A program made the position numbers and the translations under genes. 64,000 bases of DNA, taken from assembly GCA_002633005.1 (NCBI GenBank), contig NMRA01000231.1:252082-316081 (forward strand), in the 5' to 3' direction. This DNA comes from Phoronis australis. Lineage: Eukaryota > Animalia > Phoronida. The notes under the pieces are model-generated. The model was not told the origin of the DNA, searched no databases, and saw nothing but the letters and a program-made list of their open reading frames with translations. This document shows, piece after piece, positions 8,645 to 55,011 of the stretch; the first letter of the stretch is position 1, and each line of letters begins with the position of its first letter.

Positions 8645-8940
8645 TACTGTGTTCTCCACATTCGGTTTTTACTTGTAATTGCATCGAGTTTTAATTTTGT
8701 TGTGTCTAATTTGGCTTAGTTGTGTAGAATCTGAAAAACTGCAACAGATTTGAGTATTGGGAGATGTGTCGTTTGTTAAACAAATCAAAACATTTTAGAT
8801 GTTTGGTACCAATTCAATGCGTTTACTCTAAGACTTAACATACAGACTCCCCAGAGTGTGAATATGGAATTATGCACGTATTGAACATTTTTTTTGCAAT
8901 TCCAGTAAAAAATGAAATTTCTGCTGTGGAGAACACAGAA
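8645..8940. mobile_element. MITE-like element with inverted termini
   Basis: CTGTGTTCTCCACA (~8647) and its exact reverse complement TGTGGAGAACACAG (~8925). Confidence 0.5.
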
Positions 8941-9090
8941 GTACATAAGAAATGGAACGAGGCCAGATACCGTTTCCTCGGCATGATAACTACTTTTAGT
9001 AACTGCAAAAATGTCTGATAATTAACGTTATGATGACAAAGTTCTAGAAAACGACTTGGTCACCTTAACTTTCTGTTAATTCCCCCATCA

Positions 9091-30600: not shown

Positions 30601-33600
30601 AGCTATTAACCAAATTCCATAAAAATCTGTTAAGGAACTTCTGAGAAACAAAGGAAAACGGAATAAAATGAAATTGCAACTAGGGGGCACAGCGTTCGTT
30701 GGATACACCTGAGAGTCGTTGTTGTCTATTGTAAACTTCATATAAATACACTTACTAAATTTAATGAAGATTCTGTAGTGACCTTAGGAGATGCAGCTAT
30801 GGGTCCAAAACAAAACAAAACTACCACTACGAGATATCACAGTAGTCAAAGTCGTCATCGTCAACTGTCTTCTTAACACTGAGAACGGATACGCCAATTT
30901 TCAAAACTATCCTTAGAATGGTTTGGTTGATGAAGGAGTGAATGCTAAAAACAGAATCGAAAACAGCAAAAATGGCCACTAGGTGGCGCAAAAAACCTTG
31001 ATTCCATCAGAAAACAGGAGGATAGCGTCATCTCATTAACAGATGCCTATATTGAAAATTTTATGAAAATCCGTTGAAGAACTTTGAAGATACAGACTGA
31101 GGTAAACGTAAAAAACTAAAATTGCCACTACAGGGCACACAGATAGTCATATTTGCTTGAAAGTCGTCGCCGTCCGTTGTCAATATCATATAAATAAACT
31201 TGACAAATTTAGTAAAGTTCCTGCGAACGGTTTAGGAGACACAGCCTTAAGCGCAAAATGAACAAAACTGCCACTAGGAGGCACCACAGTAGTCAGAAGT
31301 CGTCGGAAAATCATCTTCAGCAGTCTTCTTCATACTAAGAACATACATGCCAATTTTCACAATCATTCATAGAGCAGTTTGGTTGATAGAGGGGTGGACG
31401 CCAAAAAACATACCCAAAAACCGTAAAAAATGGCCGCTAGGTGGCGCAAACTACGTCGAATCCATCCGAAAAAAAGGGGAGGAAAGCGTTATCTCCCTAA
31501 TAGGTGCCTATATACCAATTTTTATGAAAACACATTGAGGATCGTTGAAGATAGAGGTAAACGTAAAAAAATAAAATTGCCACTAGGGGGCACACCCGTA
31601 GTCGGATCTGTCTGAAAGTTCGCTCATGTCGTCCCATCAATGAAAGCTACACATGTGCCAAATTTCATGAACATACGTCAAGCGGTTTTGGAGATAGCGC
31701 AGCGGACGCCGCACAGACGGAGATGATGGCATGTTGCGTCCACANGTGTGCGTTAGCGGTTGTTTATTTATATCATAAAAATGGCCACTAGATGGAGCTA
31801 AAACATCCAATTCATTCGAAAATGGGACATGTCATTGCTTCTTTAATGGAAAGCTATTAACCAAATTCCATAAAAATCTGTCAAGGAACTTCTGAGAAAC
31901 AAAGGAAAACGGAATAAAATGAAATTGCAACTAGGGGGCACAGCGTTCGTTGGATACACCTGAGAATCGTTCTTGTCTATTGTAAACTTCATATAAATAC
32001 ACTTACCAAAAAGATTCTGTAGTGACCTTAGCAGATGCAGCTATGGGCCCAAAACAAAACAAAACTACCACTACGAGATATCACAGTAGTCAAAGTCGTC
32101 ATCGTCAACTGTCTTCTTAACACTGAGAACGTATACGCCAATTTTCAAAACTATCCTTAGAATGGTTTGGTTGATGAAGGAGTGAATGCTAAAAACAGAA
32201 TCGAAAACAGCAAAAATGGCCACCAGGTGGCGCAAAATACCTTGATTCCATCAGAAAACAGGAGGATAGCGTCATCTCATTAATAGATGTCTATATTGAA
32301 AATTTTATGAAAATCCGTTGAAGAACTTTGAAGATACAGACTGAGGTAAAAGTAAAAAACTAAAATTGCCACTACAGGGCACACAGATAGTCATATCCGC
32401 TTGAAAGTCGTCGCCGTCCGTTGTCAATATCATATAAATAAACTTGATAAATTTAGTAAGGATAATGTGAACAGTTTAGGAGACACAGCCCTAAGCGCAA
32501 AATGAACAAAACTGCCACTAGGAGGCACCACAGTAGTCAGAAGTCGTCGGAAAATCATCTTCAGCAGTCTTCTTCATACTAAGAACACACATGCCAATTT
32601 TCACAATCATCCATAGATCAGTTTGGTTGATAGAGGGGTGGACGCCAAAAAACATACCCGAAAACTGTAAAAAATGGCCGCTAGGTGGCGCAAACTACGT
32701 CGAATCCAACCGAAAAAGGGGAGGAAAGCATTATCTCCCTAATAGGTGCCTATATACCAATTTTTATGAAAACACATTGAGGATCTTTGAAGATACAGAG
32801 GTAAACGTAAAAAACTAAAATTGCCACTAGGGGGCACACTCGTAGTCGGATCTGTCTGAAAGTTCGCTCATGCCGTCCCATCCATGAAAGCTACACATGT
32901 GCCAAATTTCATGAACATACGTCAAGCGGTTTTGGAGATAGAGCAGCGGACGCCAGACAGACGGAGATGATGGCATGTTGCGTCCACATATTTATAAATA
33001 TGTGGGCGCATGAAAATGTAATTGATACAAAAAACATTATCAGCTTAGGGCATAACATTATCGCAACATACACTTATCGCAGGAGTTAAAATACAAACCG
33101 GTCAATTTCCTTGGCTTTTTTATATATGCGTGTATTTTTTTCCACAATTCTCTTCACTTCCATTTCCTCTCGCTTGACTTTTTCTTTAGGTGTCTCCCCA
33201 GTTACCGGGTCGCGTGTTAATGTAAGTTCTCGGGCATTCCTCTCTTGTCTTTGCCTTTCCTCTTCCACCTCCTTTTTGATTCTAATGGATATTGACTGAA
33301 TCATTACTGTCATATTGAGAGAATGAGAGCAAAACCTTAAACTGGAACATATTAGCTACTACAAAGACATAATTATATGCATACTCATCTAAGAAAATTT
33401 AGCAATGATTAATAGAAATTTGTGACACAACAGGATTTTACTTGCTTTGGTCGAATGGAAGTCACATCGCCTGTTCATTGGCAAATTTTACGTTCCTTAT
33501 ACATGATAACGTTTATAAATTCAGCAGACCCCAAACCTGACTGTGGTACCCTTTCAGCACACCCCGTACCTGGCTATTTTCATCCTCTGTTGTTTGATCT

Positions 33601-36600
33601 TCTTGTTCTCCTTCACCTGCTCTCTTTCAATGTCCATGAACAGTCGACGGTACAGCGCCCTCTGGTTACGTGCCTGAGTTCGTATCTCCTCCTCTGACAT
33701 GGCCGCGTGTATGTCTTTGCCACCAGGGACCTCTGGCAGCCTTGCCTCCATCTGCTCCAAGTGGGGATTCAAGGCCTGAGGCTGAGACAGAGGTCGCTCA
33801 AGATCTGTGCCAGAAATCTCAGCAGCTGAAGGACAAATAAAATTCCTCAACACAACTTGTATTCAATCACAATGGGTATAATCTCACAGAATTCACTAAT
33901 TGTCGTTAGCTGGCTAAATGTTTCAGTCATGTTTACAGTTTTAAAGAGAGAATAAACCTGTGCTTAAAGTAAACAACTTTTGATTTAAGCCACTTACTGT
34001 TGTAAAACTGGCCTCATCTCCCTGAATCAAATTAGAAGGCCCATTAAATGCCTCGCATGACAAACCAGTTTCAGTCACCAATGCAGCCTAACTCTCAATT
34101 TATTGATAAGAGTTCAAATCAAACAAAAGGATAAGAATTTGATGAAAATGTTTGAAAAGCAAATGTGCCTAGTTTAAAAGGTTTGCCATTTTAACATTCA
34201 GAAAATGATTCATAGTGTTGCTTTAATAACAATGAGTAAACACAAACATACCAGTCCTCTGTCTAATTCTGTCCAGCCTTGTTTCATCTTCATCGCCTAA
34301 GTCAAATGTGACTGATTTCCGCGATGCAAACGATTTTTGTGAATCCTTTTTCCTCAACCCACTGTCGGCATCAAAATCTGAGCCAGGTGTCACAGCCGGG
34401 ATATTGTCATCTGAATTCATTGTCAGTCCTGCGTCTCTGCCAACATTCTGCAGTTGAAAATTGTCTCATTTACTAAGTTGGCATTCCAGAGATTTATACC
34501 AAATACACACAGCAATTCAAAGCACTTTAAGCAAAACATCAATACAAAATCTCAAATGTACAATTGACCTGGTTCATAAATTCAAAACAGCCGAGACTAA
34601 TGCTTCCATAGAAATTTAATTGAATGACGCTTGAATTCCATTCAGTGTTTGTACAGCAAAAACAAGAGCAACGCAGTGTTGCTATGTGCCACACAGTGCA
34701 TCAGAAAAACTAAATCTCCTGGGGTCATTTATTACATTCTTGCAAGAGGAGGCAACACCACTAAAATAAAAAATGCGTGAAGAGTGCACAATGCTAAATA
34801 ATCCTCCAAAAACAGTAAGGCACCACTCATCTTCTCATTTTAAAGAGAAACAACTGCAGCAAAAGCATCTCATGTACATCAATTATTGACAAGCATTTTC
34901 AACTGCCTTACATCACCCCAGGTGTCCTTCCAGTGACCCCCTGGGAGGTCATCTGCAGTGGTGGCGCTAGTGACAACCTTTCTTGACACCAACTTGTTAC
35001 GTGCTTCTCTCGTCTGCCTCACTTGCTGGTAATTCTGGTCTTCCAGTTGTTTCAGAGGTTCAAACTTGGCTGTTTCTGGCTCTGGGTAGAAGCAAGTCAT
35101 ATTTTTCAAATTCAACATTCATAACAATAGATCAGTTATAACATTTTACTTAGAGTCCCAGAAAGAACTGCTCTCCGTCACTCTCGTCTAGGTCAACGTT
35201 CACCTTCGACTAAACTCCCTCCCAAACATTTCCGAAATATTCACTTTTAGATGACCATGTTTGGCTTAACGCTCAAAATTAGGCATGCATGTTTGTGACT
35301 TTCGCCATGTCCTTGCACTAACGAGAATATCAACTACTGTACAAAAACTCACACAATTTCTTTCCAACAAAAACAACAAACAATGCATTATCTATATCCA
35401 CAAAAAGTATTGTGTGGTTTGTGCATGTAAAGCAGCTGACAACAATGCAACAGTCTTGATAGATCACTTGGGTGAATGCTCACCATCTGATTTTTGAGTT
35501 TCTCAATTTATTTCAAATGTCCTATGGGTATTTGATTTACAGGCCAATTTGTAAATACGTTTTTAGTGTCCACACACAGAAGTTCGCAAATCGATGCACA
35601 ATGGTCCTTTAATATAACTTGCAATTCTAACATGTTGTCTTCAAAACTGCTTCAGGACTTGTAATCAAATGCTGGATTGTACCATTAGCCACAGTGGCAC
35701 ACTTCAAAGTGAACTTGGCAGACTTTAGCTGCCCAATACATACTTTGTAACATTGGCACTACTAAGCGAAGAATATGAAAATTTTGTCATAGAAGGCATC
35801 ATTGTGCCAGTACCTATTAATCAGAGTAGTCAGTTGTCAAATATGTTGCCATAAGTTAGCCACATTCAGCCATTTTTCTAGGGTACAACACAACCTCAGT
35901 TAGCTTTCATGCCCTAACTGGGATTTCAAAATGTAAGCTAGCCACTAGAGCATGAGTAACTATAACTTGAACGTCCAATACAGACAAATTGCCTACCAAG
36001 CTTTGAGGGGGATGGTCCAAGACGAGATTCCACTGCAGCGGTTGCTCCACACTTGACATGTTTTGGAGATGCCCACAAAGCCTTCTTGAGAACGTTCCTC
36101 TCTGCCTGGATCTAGAGAAGGCAACAGGACTTTCAAATTTTTCATTTGGCAACATGGCGATTTTCACTTATTTAGCACAAAATATGACGGACATGTGAAG
36201 TTTATGTTGTCGAAAATTTTCGACAAAAATTAAGATTTTTTAAGAAATGTTGAGCCAATTTTGCTTTGTCCCTGCTGAGTAGATGTTATAACACAACGTG
36301 TGGTTTCTGTTATTTGCAGTAAGGCAACCAGCTTTAGAAAAATCGAAAAATAACAATTTCTGTAATTACTGTTCTGAGAAATAAGTAAAGTATTATCATA
36401 ACGTTGACTGATGTCATATGCCACTACTGACATAAGCTGTCACAAGCCAGTTTAGTGATACACTTTGCAGGTCAATATATGAGAACCAGTGAGTACTCCT
36501 ATCCCCTGTCTGTATCTTGCATCACGCATTAAAAGTCTATTCAACATTGAATTTATGCCACTTAACAACTTGTGTATCTTGCAGATTCTCAAGTCTGAGA

Positions 36601-37686
36601 AAGTTTAATTTTACTCACAGACCACCACTCCCAAGCTACAACTGATTCGACACCAGTCATCATCACACCAAATATCATTCCTTCACCTCCTATTGCACCA
36701 ATCCCAATCCTTGTTGACATATTCAGACTAATTTCACAATTTGTGACAAATTATACATAGACCACAGCGTTCATGATGAGCTAAAAAGTCAGATCTCCTT
36801 GGTATGAAAAAGCCAATTTCACGATCAAGTACTATAAAAATGCCATTTAACTGATCGGAAAAAACTTTGAGCACTCTGATATTACGTGTGACATTTTAAA
36901 ATAATTATTGACAACAGTACTAACAAATCTAGTAGACTTCTGCACTTGCTGGTGTTTTTTTAGCTTTGTCATATGTTTTACTCTTTTCTTGACATCTTCT
37001 TGAAACTTAAGTAATTTTTCCTGTTTTTCAACCATGGCCTGTCTGATTCGTTGTTCCTCAACTGCAGCAGATCGCTGGAATAGATTAAAAATTATCAGTA
37101 CATAATTAGTTTGTTTACACTGTTAACTCTTAAAAATTTTTAAGACTGTGAACAAGTGTAGTGGCATGTGACTTCTCTATGTGACCTACAATCATGTGAT
37201 GCCTCTATTAGTAAATCACTTGCCAAGCGGCGGTTGCCTCTTAGCTGAACAGTTTAGATGATCAGCTAGTCTTATGCGTGCAACCCTGTTGCTAACCTGA
37301 GGAGCAGGTGGCACTCTTGATCCCTATGAAGGAGAGCAGTGTTGTGAAACAAGACTTCAACTTCCCTCAGCTCTCTCTGACAGCCACAGGCACAGGGGAG
37401 GTAACCATGGTTAAGTGTAAGAATAAACAAAAGAACATGCACTGTTGTGGCACATTCGTCTTTGTTTTACCTGAACATCGTTCTGCAGATTAACGCTGTC
37501 CACAACAATACACGGAATTTCTGGTTGGGCCCATGCGCCGACGGGACGAATTTCCGAATTTCTCAAACCCATTTTGGACATTTCTATCCTTTTAGTAGAA
37601 GATTCTGACCACGCACTGACTGGCCGCTTTTCCTTGTTTCTTGTGACATGTAGAGAATGCCGTTCACGCACGTCAGGCCTGGACAT
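27694..37686 (-). CDS. CCDC15: Coiled-coil domain-containing protein 15 (centriolar)
   Basis: Phase-consistent exons (minus): 37686-37471, 37074-36925 (KLLKFQEDVKKRV), 36111-35997, 35081-34912 (DLPGGHW), 34447-34252, 33825-33570 (ALYRRLFMDIEREQVKE), 33281-33099, 29162-29014 (YIEALK...LPLLCCC...WDTNPDTCANNCQFYRNPK), 27743-27694 (AYAKALQTLLQSCDLA*). The YRRLFMDIEREQVKE and PDTCANNC motifs are characteristic of CCDC15. Confidence 0.88.
29974..30041 (-). mobile_element. tRNA-derived SINE head
   Basis: Minus strand GGCTGTGTGGCTCAGCGG (Pol III A box)...GGGTTCAAATCCC (B box); no clean anticodon or acceptor stem. Confidence 0.6.
30470..33012 (+). mobile_element. Internally repetitive non-autonomous element (Helentron/HINE-like), as two ~1.25-kb copies joined at an N
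   Basis: Copy 1 30495-31744, N at 31745, copy 2 31746-32988. ~150-bp subrepeats; 3' GGACG/CAGACGGA-type motif; terminal hairpin TGCGTCCACATATTTATAAATATGTGGGCGCA (32979-33010). Class assignment is inferred. Confidence 0.7.
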
Positions 37687-37985
37687 TTTCACTCAAGGTG
37701 AAGTTTATCAGCGCAGTACGTTTTTGAGTTTACGGAAGTGACAAATTCAAATATGGCCGCGAAATGTAAATGTCGCCTATTCGAGAAATTTCTTTCAACC
37801 AAATTCTTACTCTTATAGAACAATTGCAGTAATTTTGATGAATATTGAGAGTAAAAGTCATTAAAAGGAAATTATATATAACAATTTTGCGTATTTTGTT
37901 TGAAACCAATTTTTGTTTTATTCTGCCCATCATTCCCAGTAATTATGTCCGCCTCCGTAAGTGGTTTTCAACAGTCTTCAATAAA
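37687..37985. promoter_or_regulatory. Bidirectional promoter CCDC15/TBRG1
   Basis: Divergent ATGs 300 bp apart (37686 -, 37986 +). ACGGAAGTG ETS-like site at ~37732-37740, AATATGGCCG YY1-like site at ~37750, CCGCCTCC GC-box-like site at ~37949. Confidence 0.6.
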
Positions 37986-40900
37986 ATGAACAAAACACCC
38001 AACAACACCGAAGAATATGTAGCACAAATCGTCCAACAACAACAGCAGATACTTCTCCAGCAACAGGTACTTTTGTCTACGGTCTGGTTACCTTTCTACC
38101 GTGCATCTGTTGAGTAATCTGTACACTCGTGCATTTTAAACGTTTAGAAGTTGCCGCTAACGCAACGCCAACTGTAGTCAGCAAGCTAGCTGTATGTAGA
38201 GTTAGACTATCGTCAAACTACAGCTAAGAACCACTGTGTGTTAAGCTCCGATAGAGGTATAAGCTCCACCCAGCCTGGGTAGTTCTGCTCGTCACCTCAT
38301 CATGAAACTAATATCAACATGTGACCTTTGTCATTTGATCATTTGTGGGATTATTCTAAAACCCACTAAACCCTCTCGACCCCCATACTCCACGACCCCC
38401 TTGACCCACGACGCTGTCAGCGCTTTTTACACATTTTATAATCACATTACATCACTGAATGTCTTTTCCATAAGACTTGCCTAGAACCGAATCTGCTCTG
38501 CTCAAGTCTTGTGTAAAAACAGAAATTGATGTAAAAACATAATCTGAAATAGCGGATTGTAAACGTGTTGTCGTTGTCATGGAAATAGTTCCATGAGCGC
38601 CTACCAATGGTCACGTTCTACTAAACTTAGGGAGAGAGTATGTTAATGTGAATGCACATAATTTCACATTTTTATTATTTGCTTTCTGTTGTATACTCGT
38701 GTAATGGGGGCGATATCTACGACCAAGGTGCCCCGATTTTACGAGCCCGGTGCGGACTGAGGGTGATATTGAAAACTTATAGTTGGTGAAGAGTACATAG
38801 GTTTATTGGAAGAAGATACAAATACAATGTTTCACACTTACAAGCAATCCAGTAGTTCCATGATCTAGTATCACAGCTTTTTGATTTATACAGTTCTGAT
38901 ACACGTGCAGGCCAGTCGCTGATTAATAGTTGTATGTGTAAGAACGGAGGCAATTTAGTTATTCAGATCCGAAAGGTGAGGGCACTCCTGCTACACTCGT
39001 TTACAATATACTTCGTGTCACTTTGAGATACTCTTTTAGCTTACAGTTTGTCTTTTTAAACTGTATAATTTAGTAATTACATATTCGTCGGATCCTTGCA
39101 CTTTCCCAAAAAGCTTGAATCTGATATTTACTGAAGAGCAGATGAGACGTTTACACTTTGCAGGTAATGACATTTATAACGTTGGTAAGTCTTTGATTTG
39201 ATTTGGTCATGTTGTTTATTTCTGTTTTCGGCTTTCAAACTTGCCAAATTCTTTTAATTGCAAAAAAAACAGGGCAAGGCCAGCCATGCTCGCGGCTGAC
39301 TCGTTGGTCCTGCAAGTCAGCTTGTTCTATGTAATGTTCAAATCGTGTCGAGCTTGTGTAGACTGGGTCGAGAGGGTTGTGACTCATGGGAGTCATGGGT
39401 GTGAAAGTCGAGGGGGTTTTAGAACAATCCCAACATTTGAAGCTAACGTTGACAGTGGACACAAAATCTGGGAGTCAGCCCGAAACTCACCTTGCCCGTT
39501 GCAGTCGTTTAAGTGAAAAACAATCTAACAAACATCACGTTCTTTCACAATTCTCCGTCTTTTGTAGCAAAGAAAAATCCATCGTGGTTTTGAAAACAAA
39601 GTGCTCATGACGCACGCACGGGCCATTTCCAATTTTTTGTGACATTTCTTGGTAGATGTTGGCAGCTTCGTAACAGCAAAATTTGTTCTGAAATCCAGTT
39701 TCCTGTTATTAAAATACTGAAAACCTATAACCAGTTCTGATAGTTTTTTGAGACATGTACCTATTATGTAACTTTGTAGAAGAAGAACAAGTGAAATTGG
39801 CCAATAGGCGATGCTATATTTCATTGTGCCGATGTCCATTGCATAAGATCACCCCACAACACCGGTAAATAATTTAGTTTACTGAAGGAAGAATAGATTT
39901 TTAATTACACCAATTTTGTGTCAGATATTATTTAGCCATTTCCACCCACATCAGCTCAAAGCTGTATACTGTATTCGCCCTAATTGGAATTGGTGGTGAC
40001 TGGCGATAGGAAATTTTTCCTGCAACCAAAAAGTTCACTCACTCAGAAAGCACATGCACTTTTCCCGTCGGGTGAGTTAGGCCCCTGACATGCTTAGTAA
40101 GTCTGAATTATTAATTAAATTTAAATTTCAGTGGAATTTTCTTCCTTATTAGAAGTTCCAGCGCTTTGTATGCAATAACGAGCCATGGGTTAGGATTTTG
40201 ATAATACTGCATCCAAAATGTGTTTCCCAATTTCTCGGGCCGTCCATTTCAGAAGTTGCCAATTTCAGCTAACTGTATCAAACTCAAGCGCAAATCACCT
40301 TAAAAAAAGATACTAACAAGTGCAGGAATTGTACTCGTCTTTGATGTTAGTTCATATGTGATGAGCCTTTATTTTGGCCTAATCTCTAAAGTCTGTCTTG
40401 TTTTCAGGCGTCCAGTGGCCATCCTCCTGTGAGTGACGAGCAGTGGGCAGGTGCTGCCTATGATGTGTTAGTGAAGGAGGGTAAGGCACTTCATGTTAAT
40501 GACATTGCCCGCAAGATCGTTGACTCTGGCTTGGTCAAGGGTGGGTGAGTGGATACCTTCATTCAAGTACTTTATACTTGCGGAATTGCCACAGTGACAT
40601 TATAGGCAATAGGCATTTACAGGGGTCTCTCACTTTGAGAACCAGTTTGATGTAAACCCTGTTATTCACTAGGCTTAGGTAACCAATACTCTCTTTTCAG
40701 TGGAGACAACTGGTTCTTAAAATGGAGGCCTCTCCACGGTAGTGTAAAATCTCACCAACTTGGACTAAATAATTGCCAAGATTGCCATTCTTTCATTTTT
40801 CAAGTGTTCAACTGCAGCTGTTGTGAAAGTCTACAATTTCTCAAAATATCACTAGTGTGATACACAACCTGAATGTGGAAAAGCATTAATCCGACTTGTG

Positions 40901-43900
40901 CTTCATGACTTTCATGGAAGAATGAGGAAGTCACATTGTTTCCTGAATTGTGTGAAAGTTGAAGGTTTTGGATCACAAGTTTGCATCACTCTGTTAGTTA
41001 CTTAGATACCATATTCGATCTTTTTATAGCAACTTAAGTGTGAAAGATTTTTTATAAGTATGATTTGTAATCTAGAGCATGCCTTGTCAGCAACGTGTTC
41101 AATTCGTTAACAAGACTAGACAAGTTTTGCCTATGCAAAAAAGATTTGAAGAGAGCAGATCCAGATCATTGCTTGGTTTACAGACAGGAAGGCTATCTTT
41201 CGAGCAACATAGTATTTTATTGTGTGGTATTCTTGTTTTTCAAAATGGATGTAATGACCGACATTTTACAGAATGAGTGACCTTACCTACAAATTTATTT
41301 CTTTTGCATTTTTAGCGCAAGAAGTGTCCTTGATCAGATATTATTAAAAGAGGTAAGATTAAGTTAAAATCTACAGTTTTTTGCATATCTGGCTCATCAC
41401 TCAGCCTAGTCATTGAGGTCCTACATAACCTTGACAGTCTTGGTGTTCTGCCGGTGTATGGTCAATGCACAATTGGTGACCTGCAGCTCATCAAAGCAAA
41501 CTCAGATTTTGTTTGGCGACCTAATAAAAATTCCTAGTTGCCACGAAGCTGCCGCATTCTTGCTAGTTGCATCCAAATCAGAAGAAGTGGTGACCTTCAT
41601 AGATCTGGTCACATGCTCAAACTTTTTCAAAAAGAAAATAGACAGGATTTGGAGTTGTTCAGCAAAAACAGCAGGAACCACAAAAAATGACGCCAAGGCA
41701 ATTTTGGGTGTCGCAGCAGGCATTTTTCATCATTTCAATTTGTTTGCCTCTCTGTTTGTCTTCTCCACCTTTCATATGTATTCTATTTTGTTTCCTGCTA
41801 GATTAACTCAGGTTCCACCAGATTTAAGAAGCTTGAGAATAACTTCTTCAAAGCAGCCGGTCGGGATGTCACCTCACAGGTACACAATTGTCAGTCAGTG
41901 ATTGTCTTGTTTTTCAGTTCCTGACTACAAACATTAAAAATTCACTCATTTTGATTTTCCTCTGTGTTGGCCTGCCAATGAGACAACCTGAATAATTATT
42001 TAGCTTAGACAAAATTACTGTCGCCTAAGTTATGTTTTTTCTTGTAAAATTTTACAATTTCCATTTTTTTCAACTCCTTCACATTTTACTGCCATCGATA
42101 AGATTTCAGAAATCTTGCAGTCAATGACTGATTAATATAGAAGTTGTTGTCTCTAAACTGTGAGTTTTGACAAGGAATCTCTTTTATTCAGTTTTAGTGT
42201 TTGCAAGTGTTCAATTGTTTCCATGTTTGTCATGAGATTTTATTTTCTTTTTAGCCCAAGCCTTTGCCGGAAACCCCCTCTGCCACAGTTAGGCCACCCG
42301 CAAGTAGTCAGCCATCTGTGTCTGCAAGACACCAGTCTTCTTCCTTGAGTACCACTCAACCTACTCATACTCGACTTCCAACTTCTGTTCAGAAACCTAT
42401 CACTGTCAGCCAGCATTTAGCTGCCGCTGCCAAACAGCAGCAACAGCAACTGCAACAGCAGCAATTACAACAGCAGCAACAGCAGCAGCAGCAGTTACAG
42501 CAACAACAAAAATTACAGCAACAGCAGTTGCAACAACAGCAGCAACAGCTGCAACAGCAGCAGCAACAACAGTTACATCAGCAATTGCAGCAACAACAAT
42601 TGCAGCAGCAGCAGCAGCAACAACAGTTACAGCAACAACAATTGCAGCAACAACAATTACAGCAACAGCTGCAGCAGCAGCAACTAAAAACTAAGCAGCA
42701 AGTTGACCTCCGACCTCGCGGGATCAACCAAAGGCCTGGCGTGCAGCAGAGTATTCCTGGTGCACAGCTAGTAGGAGGAACTGTTCACTTCAGTGTGTCT
42801 GATGCTGCACTTCAGCAGCAGAAGCAGTTGGCCATGCTGCAGCAGCAAATTGCTGGGGCACCTCAGCGGATGTCCAATGTGCGTCAGGTTATACCCATGT
42901 CAGGTGTGACTCAGATGCAAGGTGCCGTGCCAGCGCGAGCCCCTGTCAGTGCCCCTCTTCAACAGGGAAAGAGTGGGCATCCTGTCCGTGGTGTAGTCCC
43001 TTCTCTTCCCCAACAGCAAGTTACATTATCCACTTCTGCTCATCACCAGATTAGAGAAAGTGGCCCAGTTGCTCAACAAGCTTCATTGACATCAACACAG
43101 GTATTGGCCACGCCCTCTCAGGCCAGTCATGTTAAAGCTCCTCCCCCTTACCCTTCGTCTGACAGTCAACAGGAAGCCATGTCATCCAATCAGCCATCTG
43201 TGTCAGCATCCATACCCGTTGGCCAATCAGTAGCCAAGTCTGGTACTAACAACTCCACCTATAGACAGAAGTACAGGAGGCTGAAGAAGGTTGTCAAGTA
43301 CATGTTGTTTGTAAGTTAAAGGATGTGTTAAAGGTCCTGCCAAGGTCTCAATTAAGATGCTTCTGAATTCAAGGTGACTGCAATGCCAAGTTGTAAGATT
43401 GTTAAAGGTGAACACCATAAATCGATAGAACTTCAGTGTTACCGCCTTTTGTAGTTCTCGGTCTTATATTCAGCTTTACAAACAACTTTGTTCAGTAATT
43501 TATCCTTGTACACAACTGCTGGTGACCTTAGCACGTTGCATGAAGTCTTTGAGGAATGACAAGTTTATTGTGATTCACTACACATCTTCTTTTTGTTCCA
43601 CTCAACAGTTGAATTAGTGGCTGATTGATATGATGTTGGACAATGATTGCTGGTATCATAATGAAACAATTGATAATTTGCTGAGATTGTTTTTGTTTGT
43701 AGGTACTTTTTCTTTCTATAAAAGTAGTAGTCTGTTTAGTTCAAACAATTTTCCCTTTCACTCTAGGCTTTGGATGGTATTTATTCTCTAGTTTGCGTGC
43801 TTAAGTTAAAAAACGGAACTAAGCCACATGATACTCAAGTCAATTTCAGCTGACTATAGAGATTATATCTCATTCTGTAAAAGATATTTGCCATGTCCAA

Positions 43901-46900
43901 TGCTTTGGGTGTGGGTGGGTGGGGTGAGGGTATTTAGAGTCTAATGGTTACTGTGGGTGTGGGTGGGGGGGTGAGGGTATTTAGAGTCTAATGGTTACTG
44001 TGGGTGTAGGTGGGGGGAGGGTATTTAGAGTCTAATGGTTACTGTGGGTGCCTTATTCATCATTACACTATTATAGTGGATAGAAATACGGTGCCAAAAA
44101 TTCACAATTTTGTTTTTTAAATGATAGTGACACTAAATCTGTGATTTCTATCAAAAAGTCAAGTTTTGATTTTTGTCATTTAATGTAAGTAATTGTGTTG
44201 TCTTATCCGTTATTCAGTTGAGATCTCTAGACTAGGGAAGAACTCAGAGCTTGATATTTACACACTGCTCATGAAGCACTTATGAGCTTGGTTTGAAGAA
44301 TTTAAGAATTGACAGATCTTTCAACTCAAAGCTCTGAAATCGCCTCCAATTTGTCTGTCTAAGGAACAATTTGAGGCCAGTTTCATGACAGTAAGTGCTG
44401 TAGACTTAAAGTTGGTCTCTGTAGTGGGAGGCAGGTGTATAGCCGATTTGAGCTTCCTCTTGACACACACGCACACTCCACAATGGAATATTGAACTCGA
44501 AATTCACTGGTTGGCGCAAGTGCAGCAATGGCCCTTGCCACTGAAATACTTGCAGTCTGGTAGTCATGTGGGACCCTTGTCTTCAGAATTCCCCAATGCT
44601 AATGAAGTACTTTCAGCTCTCTTTCCCTTCAGGTGTTAAAAAGATTAAATCTAAATTAATACCATCTAGTGATTATCCATTGCCCCCAGTACTATGGAGT
44701 TGAGTCAAATTCTCCGCATTTCAGAATAACGCAGCTCTTTGTGATGAAGCGGCTCAGACCCAAGAGAAACTTGTCCGAGCTATGGACGAGAGGAGGTATG
44801 TCAACTGTTTCCAAGATTTACCGAAAAGTTCCATGGTATATGTAATGGTAATTGGCTATCTTCGTTAAATGTCTGTAATAACTTTTAAGCACTAATCTAT
44901 TAATTGTGGACCTTAGCTACAAGTCCTTGATGGTCACACAATAGTGTATTGTGCAAAAATATTTCTGAATTGTTCACAACCATTTGTCAAAGTTTTTCGA
45001 AAATATCTAATTTTTCACTGAGATCATCTAACAAAACTATCCGTTTCTTTTTTCCTTTACGTACTAAAGCGTGTCTGGGATTTTGGGATTTTCTTTAGTA
45101 GTGAGATTTCTGTGGTCAAAAATGAAGGTGTCAATCCTTAAAAGTGGAATTCTTGAAGTAAAAGGCCTCAATAGAGAAACCCAGACACACTAATCTTTTG
45201 AATCTAATAAAGTAATAAAAAATGAAACATTTAAGTTTTTGGAAAATATAGCAATCTGTGGAAAACTCATGTTTTTTGAGAACTACTGCAGTCACGAGGC
45301 TCCGTACATCGGGGCTATGTTTTCGTACACCGGATAGATTGTGCGATCATCTAGGATTATATCTTGATGGGTTTATTCGTATTGGTTAATTGAGTTCTAT
45401 AGAATGGTAATCATTGATAATTAATAAAGTCTACCTCAAGTTTTGTTAAATTTCCCCACTTAATTCAAAATTTAGAAAATTTTAGCATATAACTGGCACA
45501 GTTTGCTGTTTGTACTGTCACAAAACAATATTTGGTAAGGTTTTCATATTTGGTAGCATGCTGACTAGATTTTGAAAATTGGAAACGTGACAGTTATGTC
45601 AATTACTTTGTGCAAAATAAGTGGAGAATTACTGTACGTCATCGTGTATTTACTTGAAATAAGATTTTTGTAAGTTCTAGAAATGCTTGAAACTTTCACA
45701 ATTTTTTGGTTTGAGGAGACCTTGAAATTAAGTTTCCAAACATTGCGAAAAAGTTGTTTTTGTGTCCAAAACATGGTTTGGGTCAACTTTAATAATAAAT
45801 TGATCTCAGATATGTATGTTTTCAACAATTTGATATTCTTTGATTTGAACGCATAAAAAGAAAAAAATTGTTACTGGTTATTATTTATTCTACTTCTTGT
45901 TCTCTTTGTCGTATATGTTATAAGTATTCTAAATAGTAAGAGCCAAAAGTAATGCGATGATAAAATTTCCTGGAATTGTCTGTTGGAACAGCTGAGTGCA
46001 AGCAAAGTTGCAGTGTTTGTATTTAGAATGATGAGTTCAGATGCGAAATTAAAAAGACTTCTATCGGTTTATTTGTGGCACACACTGTATCTGATTGTTT
46101 TAACCCGACTCCAAGTTAAGCAACGAACATTTTTTCCTGAGCGTAAGTTTACAATTTTGAAAGTTATGAACTGGCATAGTATTTTACATTATAGTATGTT
46201 AAAGCATTACAAGATGTCACTCACTTATCAAGTTGAACATCTCATTCTTGTCATATGATTGGTTACCGTGGCAACTTTACATTCTGATAAGGTACCTACT
46301 GAAGAAGTTGTTCCAGCACCAATCACTATCTGATGCTGCTAGCATTGCTGCTAAGCAACACGTCCGTCTGCTTCAGCAGAATCAGCCAATGAGAACGGAG
46401 GGTGCCCTGGCATTGGACAAGGCTAAAAAGAGGACTGGCAAGAAACGCATCAGTAAAGAGATCATTGGTAATCTTTGATTGGCTACTTTTTGAAATTATT
46501 CATTGCCACACTTGTTATGTACCTATTGGTATCATCTCCATCTGGTGTCCGTTGTCCAGCTATCTATTGGGTGTCAACAACAGTCTCTGCAAAACCCCAT
46601 GTAGGATCTTTGTAAAGTTTGTCAGGTGTATTACTATGAACGTGGCATTGCATGAGCATGATTTTTGGACTAGTGCGGCTACTGTTGTACCACCTAGTGT
46701 CAATTTTAAAGGTTTTTATTGCATTTGCACTGCCAATTATTTCTGCCAAGTCCCTGGATGTATCGTTGCAAAACTTAGCAGATATGTTTGCCTGGTGGAG
46801 GTTGGTTGACGCACTGCTTCTGGTTCTCAGTTATGATGTGCAGTTCTTACTGATAATTTTAGTATTTTGGTTTTTTTTTTTCTTTTGTCTGCCTCACTGT

Positions 46901-49900
46901 CTGTCAAAACAGTTTAAACATTTGTTATTTAAGTTCAAGTATGTGTTTCTGTTGCTCAGGGCCTGACAGTTTTTTGGCATCCTCATTGTTTCCAATGTGA
47001 AGAACTGATTAGTACCCCTTTGTATTTTTGACTCAAATTTTGGACTAAAATAATTGTCAAAATTAACCTTTTTTGATTTTGATTGTCTTCTGAAATTTTT
47101 TGAATTGTTCTCTGATGGTAGCCTTGGTAATGAAATTTGATTACAGCAAAGCATTAGCTTAGTGCTACATGACTTATAAAAAATGAGAAAGATTTTCACA
47201 TGTTACCTTACTGTGTCCTTAATTGGTGAGATTTTGCTGTTACTTATAGGAAGTCTTCCCATATGGTCTGTATGTTACATTTGAATCAGCAATATTTTCT
47301 AGCAAAGATCTCTGTTTCAGTTGATGGCAAAGCCAAGGTTAAAAAATCTCTCAGTAGCATCCCTGGGAGGAAGTTGGTTATGCCCATACCTCTAGATTCT
47401 GCTGGTCGACCAATGTTCCCTGTGGAGTTGGGTGAGCTGACTATATATAGTGTAGGGGAGGTAAGATTTACTTGACTGTCTTTTACAGTGTAGACAATCT
47501 TCCTCCCTCAACAGTTGCTCAGGTTTTCTCATTATTAGGGTTCCGTTCTCACAAGGTGCATTTTTTCTTGTGCACCACCACTGTGTTCTTTTCTCATGTT
47601 GTTGAGAAAAGATTTGCCTTGCGGGAGAAAAGAAATTCAGCTGGAGAGAAAGAATATGAGTTCGCGAGAGAGGTATGCTGTAACTGAGAAGACTGGCTCT
47701 TGTTACCTATGAGGAAGGAAGGTTATCTAGTCAACCTTGTTTTATGAATGTAAATCAAATGCCTAAGATTTCAGTCCAGTTTAATGTGTTGTCTGTTTCG
47801 TGATAAATAACTTAAGGGAGTTTTACGCAGTTCGTATTTTCATTGTTATTTTATATTTTATATTCTTATCTTTGTGTACTACAAGTTTGCCAAAGATTTG
47901 GAGGTTACCAATTGAAATTAGTTTATCTATTATAGCTGCCCAAATAGAGGCGTCTCTGACAAAAAATGTGAACATTATGTGGATTACTGAAAAGCACCTC
48001 TATTTATTAATGGTTGAAATTCATTTGTTTGAACCAATTTCTTTGTATGATCATGTCGTTATTGATTTTCTTATGCCAGTGTCTATAAATTAGTTTTTGT
48101 ATGGATGTTGAATACCTCAAATTTTTGGATTTTGAATTTTACACAAAAAGTTACAATCTATGTTTTATTTTGATGCCAACCACATTTTCTGTGAAATAAT
48201 GAAAAACAAGGGGAACAATTTGACTTGCAATAAGTATAGAAGTGATGTATTTTTAGACAAAAGTCTTGAAGTGCCCCCTCACCCTTGTCCAGTGCCATGT
48301 GTCCAGTCATGAAGGTGCTATTTGAAAGCCTCCAATTATCTATTATGTGTTGCCTAATCACTGGTAGTTTTAATCATGTCATACCTCGTGGTGAATATTT
48401 TTGGAAGTTTTGCCCGTTTTAATAATTCATATTGAAGCCCATAATGCACTCTGATTTGAGCGTAAATTGAAGACCATAATTAATAATAAGTTTTTAATTC
48501 CATAATGTTTTCCAGATTGTAAGTGATGAACCAGCCTTTCATAATACTGATGTCATCTTTCCCGAGGGCTACTGCAGTACACGAGTGTATGCTAGTGTCA
48601 TGTATCCTGACCAAAAGTGTCTGTACACCTGCAAAATTACAGGTGATAGCTCAGAACCTCAGGTGAGTTACCTGTAACAAATGTCTGAGTGTGCAAATAT
48701 TGAGTATACAACAACTACTATGGATTGTATTAATTTTTCTGTGGGCTTGATTACTCTTTCCAACACTTTGTTAAATAGAATTCTTCAGTTGGCCTATAGG
48801 GATCGCCTTTTCAAATACTGGTTTTGTCCTTTGTCTCCAAAAGATCTACCCAGATTCTACTCACAGTGATTTTAGCTGTGTTGTTGCGAAGATTTACCAT
48901 ATTCGCCCTAATAACCAGCCATGCCCCTGTAAGCACCCCAAATGCGTTTTCAGACTTTGCTAAAATAAACGCCCAGCCCATGAACGTGTACGTGCAAAAA
49001 ATGCCTTACCTACAGTTCTAAAATTCTATTAACGTCTTCAATTTATCAATAATATCCGACAGTGCTGAAAAAAATGATTTTGCACAGAATTTGTAAACCA
49101 CGAGCCTCGCTGCTATGTCGGTATTTAGCCGTGACTATACACTTCAAACTTTTGCCGTGCCTCAAAACGAACTCAGAAGCTTTGCTGATCCTGTAAGGAA
49201 TATGTCCCACTATGGGCTGGCCTTTCAGAACGGGATTGTGTTAGATATTTCCCACCCTCAACAGGAATTTCTTTGTACACGTGAAAACCGCGAATCATTC
49301 GAAGACTAATAAAACATATTTGATCAGTGTTAAAAGCACGTGACCAGGAAGTGCGTGCTACATACATGTAGCTGTCATCAAAGACATTAGTGGGAACTAT
49401 CTATTCATGAAACGGGTAGCATAGCATCGGCAAGAAATGAAAATTGGAATTAGTTTCCGACTGTTTCGAATACTAATAAAAATGTTTGGCTTTGCGTTAT
49501 TTTTAAAAGGGATTGTTTGATAAATTGTAATGGGTGTTTTGAAGCCAAATATCTGATAAAATGACCACTGACAGTGAATGCTTACACACCCTTACACCGA
49601 AAAATAACTGTCAGATAGTCAGGTACACGTCCAGCCACACGGCAACTAATATGGGCCTTGCCGAGACAAATGTGGAACGTTTTTAACACAAGACTCACAC
49701 ACGCAGACAAACTTCAAGACAAATGTCATGTGACAACAACATGTGTGTTCGTCCAGAGATTTTTCTCGTGTTGCCAATCATAGATGGCACGATGTAGAAC
49801 AGATTTGTACTTAACCTGCCGTTAATCCTGACTCAACGGGAACTTAAAAGACTTAGAGACGCTATTTGGAAAACTTAAGGAGGATTTCAGGTAATTTGCT

Positions 49901-52900
49901 TGAGTCGAAACTGTATTTTTATTCAAGCATTCAAGTCGCCACATTGATGTTTGCGAGGCAGTCAGTCGGTGAATTTTCGCCCTGGGATTTCAGCACAATT
50001 TTCTGTAAAATGATCTTAATTTAACAGCAAAGTTTGATAGCAATGTAATATAATTTTGTAGAAAGTCTGTCATAGGTTACAGATACGTCACAGAGCGTAA
50101 ATATGATGAATCTTAGCTTCCGATTTCACCCGTTTCGGAGACCAGGTTTCAACCGCCTTCGGTCACCATAAGCGCCCCCCTGGGCGGTTATTAGGGCGAA
50201 TACCTTAACTATCAAAAGTCACTATTCTTTAAATATTTTTCAACTACAGTTCATCTACCCACGAAACCATATATTTTTCAAATCTTATGTGATTAAATAA
50301 CGTAGAAAATAAATCTGAAACTAAATAAGGCGATCCAGATCCTCCCAAGGATACTATTGTTTCACAAAATGTAGAATATAAATAGGTAAATAAAACAACC
50401 AGAATGGATCAACTGAAATTTTCGGATGTAGTAACGTCCTTTGTCAACAGAAACAGAAATATTTCAGTTGATCCATTCTTGTTGTTTTATTTACCTATAA
50501 ATTTATATATGATTAAAGAAATCCTCTGTGCACGAAAACAATGCCTTTCTGTTTATAGTCACATTATTGTGTTTTATTTTTAAATTTGATTCTTCAGCAC
50601 GGAGTAAGTTGCAGCTGCCACACACACGTCACAAATTTTGCTCAAAACTGGAAAATTCTATCTCTCTATTCAATCTGATGTCGGGCAAAATTAGCAAGGC
50701 TTATTTAAACAAAAAACCCAGTGGTCAGAAATCAAGGCCACGATTCAGTCGATTTTGGGTCTAAATAGACCTTGCTAAATTTTTTCAGACACCCGATTGT
50801 ACCTAATAGATTATAGCGATAGAATTTTCAAGTTTCGTTTGAAATTTGCCCCGTATGTGGCAGTGGCGACTTACCCTGCGCTGAACTTGGAAAAATCACT
50901 TTTTAAGAACAAACACATTAATGTGACTACAAACAGTAAAAGCATTATTTTTGTGCAGTGAAAGGTCTTCTTGATCATCAAGGACTTGAAAAAATATGTT
51001 TCCATGGGTGACAAATTGTATTTTAAAAGATATTTTCACTTAAGTGTTCTCTTAACAGTTACTGGATGTTTCACTCTTTTAACTAATTGTGGTGTTGATA
51101 ATTAAATGCGTCTCTCATGATTACAGTTTGAAGTGTCACCAGAGGATGACCCTAGTCTTGTATTCACGGGCAGCTCACCATCCAGTTGTCACAACGAGCT
51201 GTTACATGCCATAAATAAACGCTGGTGAGTTTGACTCAGTCAAGTCTAGCTAATCTTATGGCAGGGACAGATCCAGGATTTTGAGTAAGGGAAGGCCAGG
51301 GCAGAGTATTAGCCAGGATTTTGCACGTTAGAAATTTGCACGCCCGAACTGCCAAATGGAATTTGAGAGAATTTTGGGGGGCATGGCCTCCTCACCCCCA
51401 CCCCATATCCGCCACTCTATGGTGCCAGGCTATTGTAAAGAATGTCTTTGTGTAACCAGTTATTCAGGAACTAAAAATTACAAGTCAATGTAATACAGGA
51501 GTGGGGCGCTTTTAATCTACTAGGTGGCGTAAGTGGTATGAAGATAGTACCCTAGTCTGTTAATGCATATAATAAGTGCATGCATTCAGGTTGTCATGAG
51601 GGACTGTTCTCACTCCCATAAGATAAACAAAAGTGAGCTCACTTTCTGTTTGCACTAGTGAATATCAAGTCTATTTTATTTTTTCAATTTACAGTTACTG
51701 AAATTTTTCTATCTGGTAAATTCGTGATCGTGCTCTTTTCTTGCAAGAAAAAGTTCAATTTGTTTCGTTACGTATACAGTCTTCATTATATTGGTTGACG
51801 TGATTAGCTGCAAACATAGATTGCCCTGGGTAGACTGTACGCTCAGTCTGGATGGTGCAAATTTCTGAGCAAACACACAGTCTTTGTTCCTCATATGTCG
51901 TGCGATTTCATGCCCGTACACATCCATTTTGTTAAGATAACAGTTTCCAAACAAGTCAAGACATTTTTAGTTTTTCAAATTGCTCATAATTGTGTTTAGT
52001 TTATTGTGCTTGGAAGTGCCCAGGATTCATTTTGAGTTTTGAATGCTTTTTGTTGCTAAGTAACATAGTGAGACTTTGGTGTCAGGATCTCTTCTTTTAA
52101 GGTTATATAGAACCTTATTGACAAATCTGGGTATTCAACCAAGTATCTACAGAACCACAGATCTAAGTAGTCAGTAAAAAGTATATCTGAAAATAGAAAG
52201 ATTTAGATTTTTGACTTTTTTCTAACAATCTGCCGTTAACTGGGTCACGTGCCCATGTCTTTTCAGTAAAATAGAAACTTTACGAAATGTTAATAGCAAA
52301 ACAAGGGTATCAGTGATTGAATTTTGTTTAATGTCAATGTTCAAACTCACCACATGTTGATCACATCATGTGGCCTATATTTAAGAATGAAACGATCTGT
52401 CCCAACGGGGGTTCGAACCAGGGACTTCCTGCTAACATGCAGTTATTTCTGATATGACGTTCCGGAGTTGGACAAATTTGAATTCAAACTCTGAATTATT
52501 TTTGACATTTTCTGCTCTGCTTTTGTGTGTTCTTAAGATAGGTATTGTATTATTTTGTGCTCAACTACATAATGGTGTTTGTGAAAATTTCTAATTATCC
52601 TAATTTGCACTTGGTGACCTCAACATTAAGCCTAAAAGTTTCAGTCTGATCATGAAATTTGAGTTTTTACTTGAAATTTCGAATTTTCACTCGAGTTCGT
52701 AGCTCCAATCTAGGGGTCACCAGGTGCAAACTTGGACTGGAACCTCATGCATAAAAACACAATGTTCTTGTGCACAGACCAATAGACACTTATCTTGAGT
52801 TCGCACATAAAGGTAGAATAGATAATTCCAAAAGTAATTGAGAGTTCAATTTGGAGTACAAAGATTAGACCTTATTCTCAAGTATTGAATTCATGTCATG

Positions 52901-55011
52901 TTCTCAAAAGAAATAGAGTTAGTTAGGGGGGCTCAACAACCAGCATGGACAGTCTAGCCAATAAGTAAGTCCCAAATGTATATGGGTCCTACTTCAACAA
53001 TTACGGAAATTAGGACCCAATTATACAACCTTTCAGAATTTCCCTTCAAAAAAGTAATGTTCACCTTTTCCCTCCTCCCCCACTTAATCTGTAATCTGCC
53101 TAATGCCACTGTGCTCGACATGTTTATATAAATGAACGGGGAAAATACTATTTGTTTCCCCTGTCGTCTGCACCACTTTGTTTCACAAGTATTTTGAGAT
53201 TCACTCATCACTATATATTAGAGGTGCTGCCTAGAAATCATCTGCCTGAGACTATTATGTTATGAGTTTGTCTGGAGTTCTATGAACGTGCAGTTAAGAC
53301 ATGTGAATTGACTATTAAATTTTAAGGCTTAAAATATTGTTGGTTCTGATTTGCTGCCGACCCTTTTGGAAACCTTCACCTCAAAATGAACAAGTCCCTA
53401 GTACATATTACAACTAACATCAAATGACCACTGGGAAAAAAGAATGACCCACATCCATTTCAGTGGGATAACTTGTATGCTTCTGCATAATATGTGCATA
53501 TTTGTTGTTGTGTGGTTATCTCAATATCAACTAATGCTCCACTTCAGGGGTTCAGAGATTCTTAAAAGTTCAGGAGACCATGGTCCAGGGTTCTTCGGAC
53601 TCACACATCCAGCGGTGCAGAACTTGATACAGAGCTGTCCTGGTGCCAGGAAGTGTAGCAACTATAAGTGGATCAAGTTTGAGGTGTGTCGATCTAGTGA
53701 AGATGAGGCCAATGTACTCCAGCCAGACAATGACATCACTGTCAGCTACGAGCACCTACAGAAGTCGCCACTGTACCTTAAAGGTTTGTATACTTAAAGG
53801 AACAATATCACAACATGGAGTGATTGGGGTACAAGTTCATCAAACTTTTTGAGGCATGGCTCGAACGTTGGCAAAGAACTTTGCATGTCATTTGAAAGTT
53901 TACTCGAAGTGTGCAGTTTTCCGGGTTAGGTCTGTGTTAAAGTTTGTTGGTCTCAGACCCTGATGGGTAAATTTTGAGTACACATATTTACATGAAAACA
54001 AATCTTCAGCAGTTTAAAGTCTTGGACTGGCTTTGCTGTTCTTGAAACGAGGCTTGAAAAGCCCCCTCAGTTCGCTTTCAGAATCGTTTTGCATGTCTGG
54101 GAAATGTCCAAAATGTTGACAAGGTGTAACATCTCACTTTTTGTCTTTAAATGGACCATCCAAATATTCGCAGTTAAAGGGTTGTCAGTCTTGTGTTTTA
54201 GCAGGCATGTGTTATGGCAGTCATGGTGCTGATGGCCAAGTCTTTCTCTTGCAATAATCCATAAAACCTTGATAATTGCTCTGTGGGCTGCAGTGCAATT
54301 TTCAGAAAGCTGTCGTACCACTCTTTCCGAAAGACCCTCTTGTGGCTCTCATTGGACGCAGTCACTGTGGGGCTTTTTTGGAAATCCAGGTATCACTATT
54401 CCCTTGTGATATCCTGTTTTACATATTGGTGGGTGTTTAGAATTTCCAATGGTCACTAACCGAGTCATGAAGTAAAGCAACTTTACATTTCTTGTTTTCA
54501 ATTGTTTCCTGTGGTTGGAATGTGGCTATTTTTGCCTGAGTAAACTCCTTCATTCTTATTCTATCTTGCTCAGAAGCAGGTCATTATTGACTCTCCAAAA
54601 CAATGCTCAATGTAACTTTAATAAAACACTTCACAAATCGGCTGTGTTCAGATCTCAAACGAAATGTCCTTGACAACTGGATACAGCATGGTCAAGCTCT
54701 GTCATCTCTCAAGCTGCTAACTTTGACAAAAGGATTCCCTAAAAGGGATCTTTGATGGTTCTTGGAATTGTAACGTACCTGTTTGTTGTTGTTCTCTAAC
54801 AATTCATTTGCCTCTAGTAAAGCTTGGTTGTACCCTAGGGTTAATCATTGTCCTTGTAACACTAGGTTGAACCTCGAGTCACTCAATGATATTTTGTTTT
54901 TCAGCCTGCTCTTCCCTGTCCCAGAAGACGCCGTCTAGTTCTCACGACAGCAGTTTGAGGTCTCTTCTCAGTCGGAAACCTAAGACAGCATCCTCGTCAA
55001 AGCCTGAATAG
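37986..55011 (+). CDS. TBRG1: TBRG1/NIAM-like protein (HARE-HTH-like, polyQ, coiled-coil, FYRN/FYRC)
   Basis: Phase-consistent exons: 37986-38066, 40408-40544, 41316-41352, 41802-41879, 42255-43310 (polyQ; YRQKYRRLKKVVKYMLF), 44725-44795 (NNAALCDE...ERR), 46292-46467 (YLLKKL), 47321-47460 (PIPLDSAGRPMFPVELGELTIYSVGE), 48516-48662 (FHNTDVIFPEGYCSTRVYAS...CLYTCKI; FYRN), 51127-51224 (FEVSPEDDP...CHNELLHAI), 53548-53783 (GPGFFGLTHPAVQNLIQSCPGARKC; FYRC), 54905-55011 (stop). AATAAA at ~56488. Confidence 0.88.
42434..42700 (+). repeat. Coding CAG/CAA polyglutamine tract in TBRG1-like exon
   Basis: About 70 Gln codons with regularly spaced Leu interruptions. Confidence 0.9.
43906..44050 (+). repeat. 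~45-bp G-rich minisatellite x3
   Basis: TGGGTGTGGGTGGG..GAGGGTATTTAGAGTCTAATGGTTACTG three times, with variable G-run length. Confidence 0.9.
48895..50204. mobile_element. ~1.3-kb non-autonomous DNA transposon
   Basis: Exact 17-bp inverted match TATTCGCCCTAATAACC (48900-48916) / GGTTATTAGGGCGAATA (50186-50202). No transposase ORF. Related end fragment at ~39968. Confidence 0.7.
50205..51054. mobile_element. Long foldback/palindromic MITE with a nested second palindrome
   Basis: Arms 50528-50670 and 50815-50960 are imperfect inverses; outer arms ~50230-50285 and ~50980-51040. Inner hairpin 50380-50500 (AGAATGGATCAACTGAAAT / ATTTCAGTTGATCCATTCT). TTAA at both ends. Confidence 0.65.
51262..51417. 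mobile_element. hAT-like short MITE
   Basis: CAGGGACAGATCC...ATATCCGCCACT ends with near-duplicated flanks (TTATGG / CTATGG). Confidence 0.5.
52470..52860. mobile_element. Degenerate palindromic MITE
   Basis: TTTGCACTTGGTGACC / GGTCACCAGGTGCAAA and TTAAGATAGGT / ACTTATCTTGA inverted pairs. Confidence 0.55.

Follow-up and report, generated by a model that had tools for sequence, protein, structure and literature searches.

The window analysed here is a 64-kb stretch of the Phoronis australis contig NMRA01000231.1 (positions 252,082 to 316,081, forward strand). It contains a TBRG1 gene whose product carries a HARE-HTH winged helix at its N-terminus, ahead of the coil and the FYRN/FYRC domains, an arrangement that ray-finned fish and another invertebrate locus share. 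The fusion very probably has a single ancient origin followed by losses. The explanation that we consider best, and to which we give about an even chance, is that the N-terminal winged helix binds DNA and so would tether INO80; TBRG1 is predicted to associate with this remodeller by way of its long coil.

Gene structure and transcripts

The gene lies on the plus strand and comprises 12 exons with a stop-free frame of 787 codons, running from 37986 to the stop at 55011. The first coding exon had been overlooked in the first-pass annotation of the window. The exons are as follows:

37986..38066, plus strand: first coding exon, 27 codons, Q-rich, with the presumed start codon ATG at 37986; open frame, 44 reads to 40408
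40408..40544, plus strand: HARE-HTH exon A, with helix 1 (W..AA..VL, from 40444), helix 2 and the GL turn, ending in phase 2; PF05066 28.1 bits, reads at the 5' joint
41316..41352, plus strand: HARE-HTH exon B, 37 nucleotides, phase 2 to 0, with helix 3 (putative recognition helix); open frame, gap-free fish match, same-phase 37-nucleotide exon in the second locus
41802..41879, plus strand: HARE-HTH exon C, 78 nucleotides, phase 0-0, with the beta-hairpin wing (to about 41849); 17 reads to 42255, exons B and C together 15.0 bits on the fish profile
42255..43310, plus strand: long low-complexity exon with a proline/serine/threonine-rich linker, polyglutamine (about 42435-42690) and, at the 3' end, the first third of an INO80E-type coil; 19 reads onward
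44725..44795, plus strand: middle part of the coil; 61% identity to fish protein P0009 (alignment A1), reads at both joints
46292..46467, plus strand: end of the coil and a basic linker that by composition resembles a nuclear localization signal; reads, open frame
47321..47460, plus strand: start of FYRN; acceptor from reads, BLAST matches to TBRG1 homologues
48516..48662, plus strand: FYRN; Pfam PF05964 61 bits, reads
51127..51224, plus strand: first part of FYRC; Pfam PF05965 28.9 bits, reads
53548..53783, plus strand: second part of FYRC; Pfam PF05965 45.7 bits, reads
54905..55011, plus strand: last coding exon, with a short LRxLL-type motif, the frame ending 35 codons in and the stop at 55009-55011; reads, open frame

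The three small exons had been proposed to splice in frame and to run on into the TBRG1 exons, and this was borne out. All three (137, 37 and 78 nucleotides) are bounded by AG and GT and form one open frame. For the first intron within the HARE-HTH region we tried six donor/acceptor pairs: the three that use donor 40540 all introduce stops, and the other three are open. Among the open pairs, the one with acceptor 41316 gave a gap-free BLAST match of 59 residues to goby TBRG1 (41% identity) that spans both junctions.

RNA support came from read joints over the gene in three raw-read runs labelled as the same species. GT-AG joints were found for at least 9 of the 11 introns, on a single strand throughout and with 17 to 44 reads apiece. 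The joint 38066>40408 (44 reads) links the ATG exon with exon A, and 41879>42255 (17 reads) links the wing exon with the body of TBRG1; 19 reads join exon 42255-43310 to the next one, and the acceptor of the exon that starts FYRN is placed at 47321 by reads. The link sought between the exon at 40408 and the FYR exons is thus largely present in RNA, except for the joints 40544>41316 and 41352>41802 within the domain, which are not among the joints listed (15 of 33) and were inferred because the frame, homology and the second locus support them. The small exons very probably do not form a separate transcript, as reads connect the wing exon with the body of TBRG1 and the ATG exon with exon A.

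FYRN and FYRC occur in this gene without SET, PHD or JmjC domains (Pfam on exons), the combination that defines TBRG1/NIAM. The 3' end of exon 42255-43310 alone matched INO80E with 12.1 bits, under the cut-off; over the coil, the full model aligns with homologues scoring above the PF24237 cut-off, indicating an INO80E-type coil before the FYR domains. No Pfam match to DEUBAD or a C-terminal PHD was found in the seven exon translations scanned and the 787-codon model is covered by TBRG1 parts, so the gene is not an ASXL gene, though it shares a domain with that family. Between the winged helix and the coil lies the polyglutamine tract (42435-42690), about 85 codons of mixed CAG and CAA interrupted by leucines, which is absent in the second locus and in fish. 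The LRxLL-type motif of the last exon (54905-55011) is common to the second locus and to TBRG1 of two bivalves, a centipede and unnamed invertebrates, and was absent in the six fish tested; it is possibly a short docking motif.

Assignment of the N-terminal domain to HARE-HTH

The HARE-HTH assignment, made in the first-pass annotation from a pattern of residues, held in Pfam. Exon A (40408-40542) alone reached 28.1 bits on PF05066, above the gathering cut-off of 25.9 (E-value 2.6e-6). The spliced domain scored 49.3 bits on a profile for which only fish domains were used, and shuffled versions of it reached at most 6.7 bits (950 of 1000 shuffles got a score). Fish orthologues reached 42 bits on PF05066, over profile positions 2-69. 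A PDB sequence search with the fish domain returned just two matches, both to the human ASXL1 N-terminus (residues 10-84; E-values 0.09 and 0.47), which is thus its closest sequence relative of solved structure; the best match extends along the entire fish domain. The label 'ASXL-type' is fair but distant at the level of sequence. The N-terminal HARE-HTH of ASXL1-3 (ASXN) belongs to the same Pfam family, and its distribution is also patchy, Drosophila Asx being described as lacking it (PMC7660087); in the window protein the domain is attached to a partner of INO80 and not to one of BAP1.

Searches with exon A alone were less informative. A word-indexed search found no relative (nine candidates, none scored), a search of PDB sequences gave one irrelevant match, and the 50% library gave four matches, one spurious and three to prokaryotic HARE-HTH restriction-endonuclease proteins, with no eukaryote among them, because the query has only 45 residues. 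The window domain is 28-38% identical over its length to prokaryotic HARE-HTH restriction fusions and RpoE. Unlike these, the window gene is a spliced animal gene with a single copy of the domain and no nuclease.

We ran the structure prediction on the domain of the fish orthologue as a proxy for that of the window. The model consists of three helices (6-17, 23-33 and 44-53) and a hairpin (strands 59-61 and 68-71), with a predicted local distance difference test score (pLDDT) of 87 and a predicted template modelling score of 0.78. Winged helices, many of them DNA-binding, filled the match lists of both structure searches (Foldseek and VIA-align), so that the winged-helix fold proposed from sequence passed this check on the fish proxy. 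In VIA-align the domain matched histone H5 (Z 8.4, root-mean-square deviation 2.4 over 69 residues) and H1 (Z 8.1), although a Z near 8 falls inside the background stated for the tool; B. subtilis RNA polymerase delta (2KRC; Z 6.8, 2.9 over 70), forkhead, Z-alpha and cullin domains were close. Structural scores of this kind show a fold class, not a function. HARE-HTH domains are described as containing an additional short helix within the HTH, ahead of helix 3 (PMC11037411). In the fish model no helix was called at residues 34-43, before helix 3; compared with prokaryotic domains and ASXL1, TBRG1-type domains are 3-4 residues shorter here (about 4 for the turn in ASXN). In a model of the full-length fish protein, two parts stand out as separate confident islands amid low-confidence linkers: the domain, at about 51-128, and a helix of 60 residues (176-235); this model is poor overall (pLDDT 49.9, FYR part unresolved) and carries no claim on domain packing.

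The same architecture in fish

A profile search for TBRG1 homologues returned 401 proteins, and our counts rest on the best 120 of these. PF05066 was present in 108 of the 120, and every carrier is a fish judging by its name or its sequence. The 12 without a match comprise nine invertebrate-type proteins and three fish models, truncated or mis-joined, in which part of the domain is still there. Named carriers are teleosts, gar, bowfin and reedfish. A search with the FYRC exon gave 16 proteins of 149-543 residues, all with FYR domains and named TBRG1 where a function was named, two of which contain PF05066, as confirmed by hmmscan. In the ESM Atlas, HARE-HTH was found in 80% of 180 members and 95% of 328 members of the TBRG1 clusters, and the arthropod, chordate and fungal FYR clusters were without it. 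Several UniRef entries are already titled 'HTH HARE-type domain-containing protein'.

It was therefore an overstatement to call the architecture undescribed, since it is annotated automatically for fish in databases, although we found no description of a HARE-HTH and TBRG1 fusion among the papers listed in our literature searches; the founding HARE-HTH work (Aravind and Iyer 2012) may list it. A review, where it summarises that work, speaks of HARE-HTH proteins of 'human, fish, plants' (PMC8536118), and the chance that the fish protein figures in the founding paper is about even or better. The presence of the architecture in databases limits the surprise. The new elements are the invertebrate examples, whose exon structure is conserved, together with the ancient origin and the losses that we infer and a wing exon that can be skipped. 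Likewise, the view that vertebrate TBRG1 consists of a coil and FYR domains only stands for the mouse protein as described (PMC5557939) but not for ray-finned fish, where HARE-HTH, coil, FYRN and FYRC together are the rule.

Ray-finned fish TBRG1 (KAK7883215.1/UniRef100_A0AAW0MST8, XP_006642297) has the same order of HARE-HTH, INO80E-type coil, FYRN and FYRC as the window protein. The domains are 37-41% identical, align without gaps and have in common an intron before the wing; the linker is about 340 residues long and contains polyglutamine in the window protein versus about 60 residues in fish, and fish lack its LRxLL-type C-terminal motif. Human and mouse TBRG1 (NIAM) are orthologues with the coil and FYR core in common, and the FYR structure 2WZO matches the fish orthologue with an E-value of 5e-70. 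Compared with gar, 80 fish proteins with a full domain have a median identity of 100% in the domain, versus 94% in the coil and 86% in the FYR part; from these sequence identities, the domain is evidently under strong constraint in fish.

A second invertebrate locus and the origin of the fusion

Of eight metagenome loci, seven hold exons of the FYRC region only and are uninformative on the N-terminus. The eighth (L004, animal host DNA) contains a nearly whole TBRG1 gene (2601-8944) with the domain at the very N-terminus and a likely start at 2648. Upstream of the coil it has the same three exons in phases 2/0/0: A ending in phase 2, a 37-nucleotide B and a phase 0-0 C. Its joined domain scored 40.2 bits on the fish profile; its exon A alone reached 22.1 bits on PF05066, below the cut-off, and its wing is closer to that of ASXL1 than to that of fish. 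Its TBRG1 core is 50% identical to that of the window. The window, L004 and fish represent three distant lineages, as pairwise identity among them is 35-37% in the domain and about 50% or less in the core. Where exon fragments were aligned with whole proteins, the domain exons ended up in the wrong place, and for the domain these alignments were set aside.

The intron between B and C falls at the same residue and in the same phase in the window, in L004 and in fish (the fish position being deduced from isoform models). Because of this shared intron, the same place in the protein and the gap-free alignment, one origin is favoured, and we consider a single ancient fusion with later losses very probable. 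The exon sizes of human ASXL1 would place a phase-2 intron equally far from the GL turn, which would point faintly to a single animal gene as ancestor. The domain was probably lost in the sampled arthropods and molluscs. For mammals, mouse Niam is described as a protein of 406 residues with the FYR part within 158-406 (PMC5557939); because this layout leaves no room for the domain, mammalian TBRG1 apparently lacks and has lost it, a deduction from the layout and not from a scan of tetrapod or shark sequences.

Independent gains of the domain by fish and by these invertebrates are very improbable, as is a separate upstream transcript for its exons: the patchy distribution, the three changes required by the core tree and the two unlisted joints would fit such a history, but the reads that tie both ends of the domain into the gene, the identical exon phases in L004, the fish intron, the common position in the protein and the gap-free alignment speak against it. 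Concerning the age of the core itself, an Ino80_Iec3 match was present in 23% of 69 fungal (Mucoromycota) FYR proteins of the ESM Atlas, and there is a hint that the coil and FYR core and its INO80 link predate animals.

A skippable wing exon

In both the window (41802-41879) and L004 (3541-3606), the exon that encodes the wing is symmetric (phase 0-0). Among 107 fish proteins with helices 1 to 3, the wing motif is missing in 25, one of them for another reason; the remaining 24 are isoform models from many orders (for example P0036, P0042 and P0045) that lack exactly the 21-residue wing segment. Two aberrant fish models end in Q just before this segment. Because 24 models skip these 21 residues and two end at that Q, we placed a phase-0 intron in fish at the position seen in the window and L004. 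These observations suggest a conserved splice switch that leaves three helices without a wing. A wing-skipping joint was not seen among the read joints listed for the window gene.

A possible DNA tether for INO80

Human TBRG1 co-purifies with INO80 in substoichiometric amounts (PMC10954555), mouse Niam pulls down every INO80 subunit (PMC5557939), and a long N-terminal helix of TBRG1 has been predicted to bind INO80, TFPT, NFRKB and INO80E (bioRxiv 10.1101/2024.10.01.615885). A helix of this type is conserved in the window protein and corresponds in the fish model to the 60-residue helix apart from the winged helix. The coil would probably dock onto the N-terminal module of INO80, in line with human and mouse TBRG1. 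We find it more likely than not that from there the winged helix, on its long flexible linker, would touch linker or promoter DNA through helix 3 and the basic wing, mostly by reading shape or backbone rather than a modified base. Skipping of the symmetric wing exon might weaken that contact, a step to which we give less than an even chance. The domain is basic in the window (isoelectric point 9.1) and in fish (10.0), and this charge and the family context are the grounds on which DNA binding is proposed. In yeast, the INO80 N-module is reported to sit on extranucleosomal DNA and to have a DNA binder of its own, Nhp10 (PMC13623949). Nhp10 has an HMG box, not a winged helix; the likeness, a DNA-binding domain on a subunit of the N-module, is taken as a functional analogy only.

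Several results count against this proposal. The L004 domain is acidic (isoelectric point 5.7) and its wing is without the basic residues. The best Foldseek E-value was 0.04, with nothing at 0.001 or below, cullin winged helices that do not bind DNA tied with the histones in the fold search, and the modelled domain was that of fish and not of the window. Neither of the joints within the domain appears among the reads listed. The domain was undetected, with the best score below 0 bits, in all 22 other invertebrate-type TBRG1 proteins examined (from crabs, a beetle, a centipede, cephalopods, bivalves and unnamed sources, many of them near-copies or N-terminally short), and mouse Niam is reported to bind chromatin through residues 1-164 without it (PMC5557939); for these two reasons the domain is dispensable in some lineages. 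Finally, the core tree did not group the window, L004 and fish (three label changes), although a single clade of the three was not rejected (approximately unbiased test, p 0.2) and the lineage of the window was left unplaced, on a long branch with no starred group.

The acidic L004 copy and the cullin/APC2 winged helices among the top structural ranks also fit a different role, in which the winged helix would dock a protein (histones, for instance, or another subunit of INO80 or of a MYST complex) instead of binding DNA. The near-total conservation in fish, surface included, would suit a protein interface, and the known functions of TBRG1 are mostly protein contacts; however, the family context (restriction enzymes, RNA polymerase delta and ASXL) and the basic charge in the window and fish favour nucleic acid, and we consider docking unlikely.

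Slightly lower still we rank the idea that the domain reads modified DNA (5-methylcytosine, 5-hydroxymethylcytosine or N6-methyladenine (6mA)) or unmethylated CpG and steers TBRG1 and INO80 by methylation state. HARE-HTH domains have been proposed as readers of modified bases (PMC4738411, PMC11037411), and a single pull-down study found 6mA DNA bound by that of ASXL1 (PMC6591016), but the other 6mA reader of that study (RAMA) is reported as unconfirmed and the ligand of HARE-HTH as disputed between adenine and cytosine marks (PMC11037411). Fusion to restriction endonucleases, seen in three of the four library matches of exon A, is in line with such a role, and the near-invariance in fish suggests a precise ligand; on the other hand, helix 3 differs much among the window, L004 and fish. 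The coding sequence of the window TBRG1 is CpG-depleted (observed/expected 0.35; GpC 1.21), which is consistent with gene-body methylation in a methylating genome. Molluscs and mammals, however, methylate their DNA, and the domain is missing in the former and apparently in the latter.

A wider scenario can be drawn, which as a whole we hold to be rather doubtful. Ancestral animal TBRG1 would have been a DNA-reading arm of the INO80 N-module with the winged helix of ASXL, so that both machines with a UCH deubiquitinase, BAP1-ASXL and UCHL5-INO80, had a HARE-HTH; the arm would have been lost in mammals, arthropods and molluscs, and kept almost unchanged in fish, with a splice switch at the wing. 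Were this true, zebrafish tbrg1 would be the cleanest system for finding what HARE-HTH reads. ASXL1 is a major myeloid cancer gene, and the ligand of its domain family is disputed; a second animal host that is small, near-invariant in fish and supplied with a natural wing-less isoform would make a simple test case. Work on TBRG1/NIAM in mouse and human probably concerns a protein from which an ancestral domain has been lost, a caution for its interpretation.

Other features of the window

Rfam gave no match in the 64-kb window. Head to head with TBRG1, at about 33400-37700 on the minus strand and about 300 bases from its start codon, lies a gene whose exons resemble CCDC15 and had no convincing Pfam match. 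Human CCDC15 and TBRG1 both map to 11q24, which would make this an old linkage. Exons at about 16300-20200 on the minus strand resemble the persulfide dioxygenase ETHE1; the one exon scanned had no Pfam match.

A globin exon lies at 58354-58629 on the minus strand, with 27.5 bits on Pfam PF00042.

At 30495-32988 there are two copies of a unit, 96-98% identical and about 1245 bases apart, each made of three diverged subunits of 350-455 bases, with one N near 31746.

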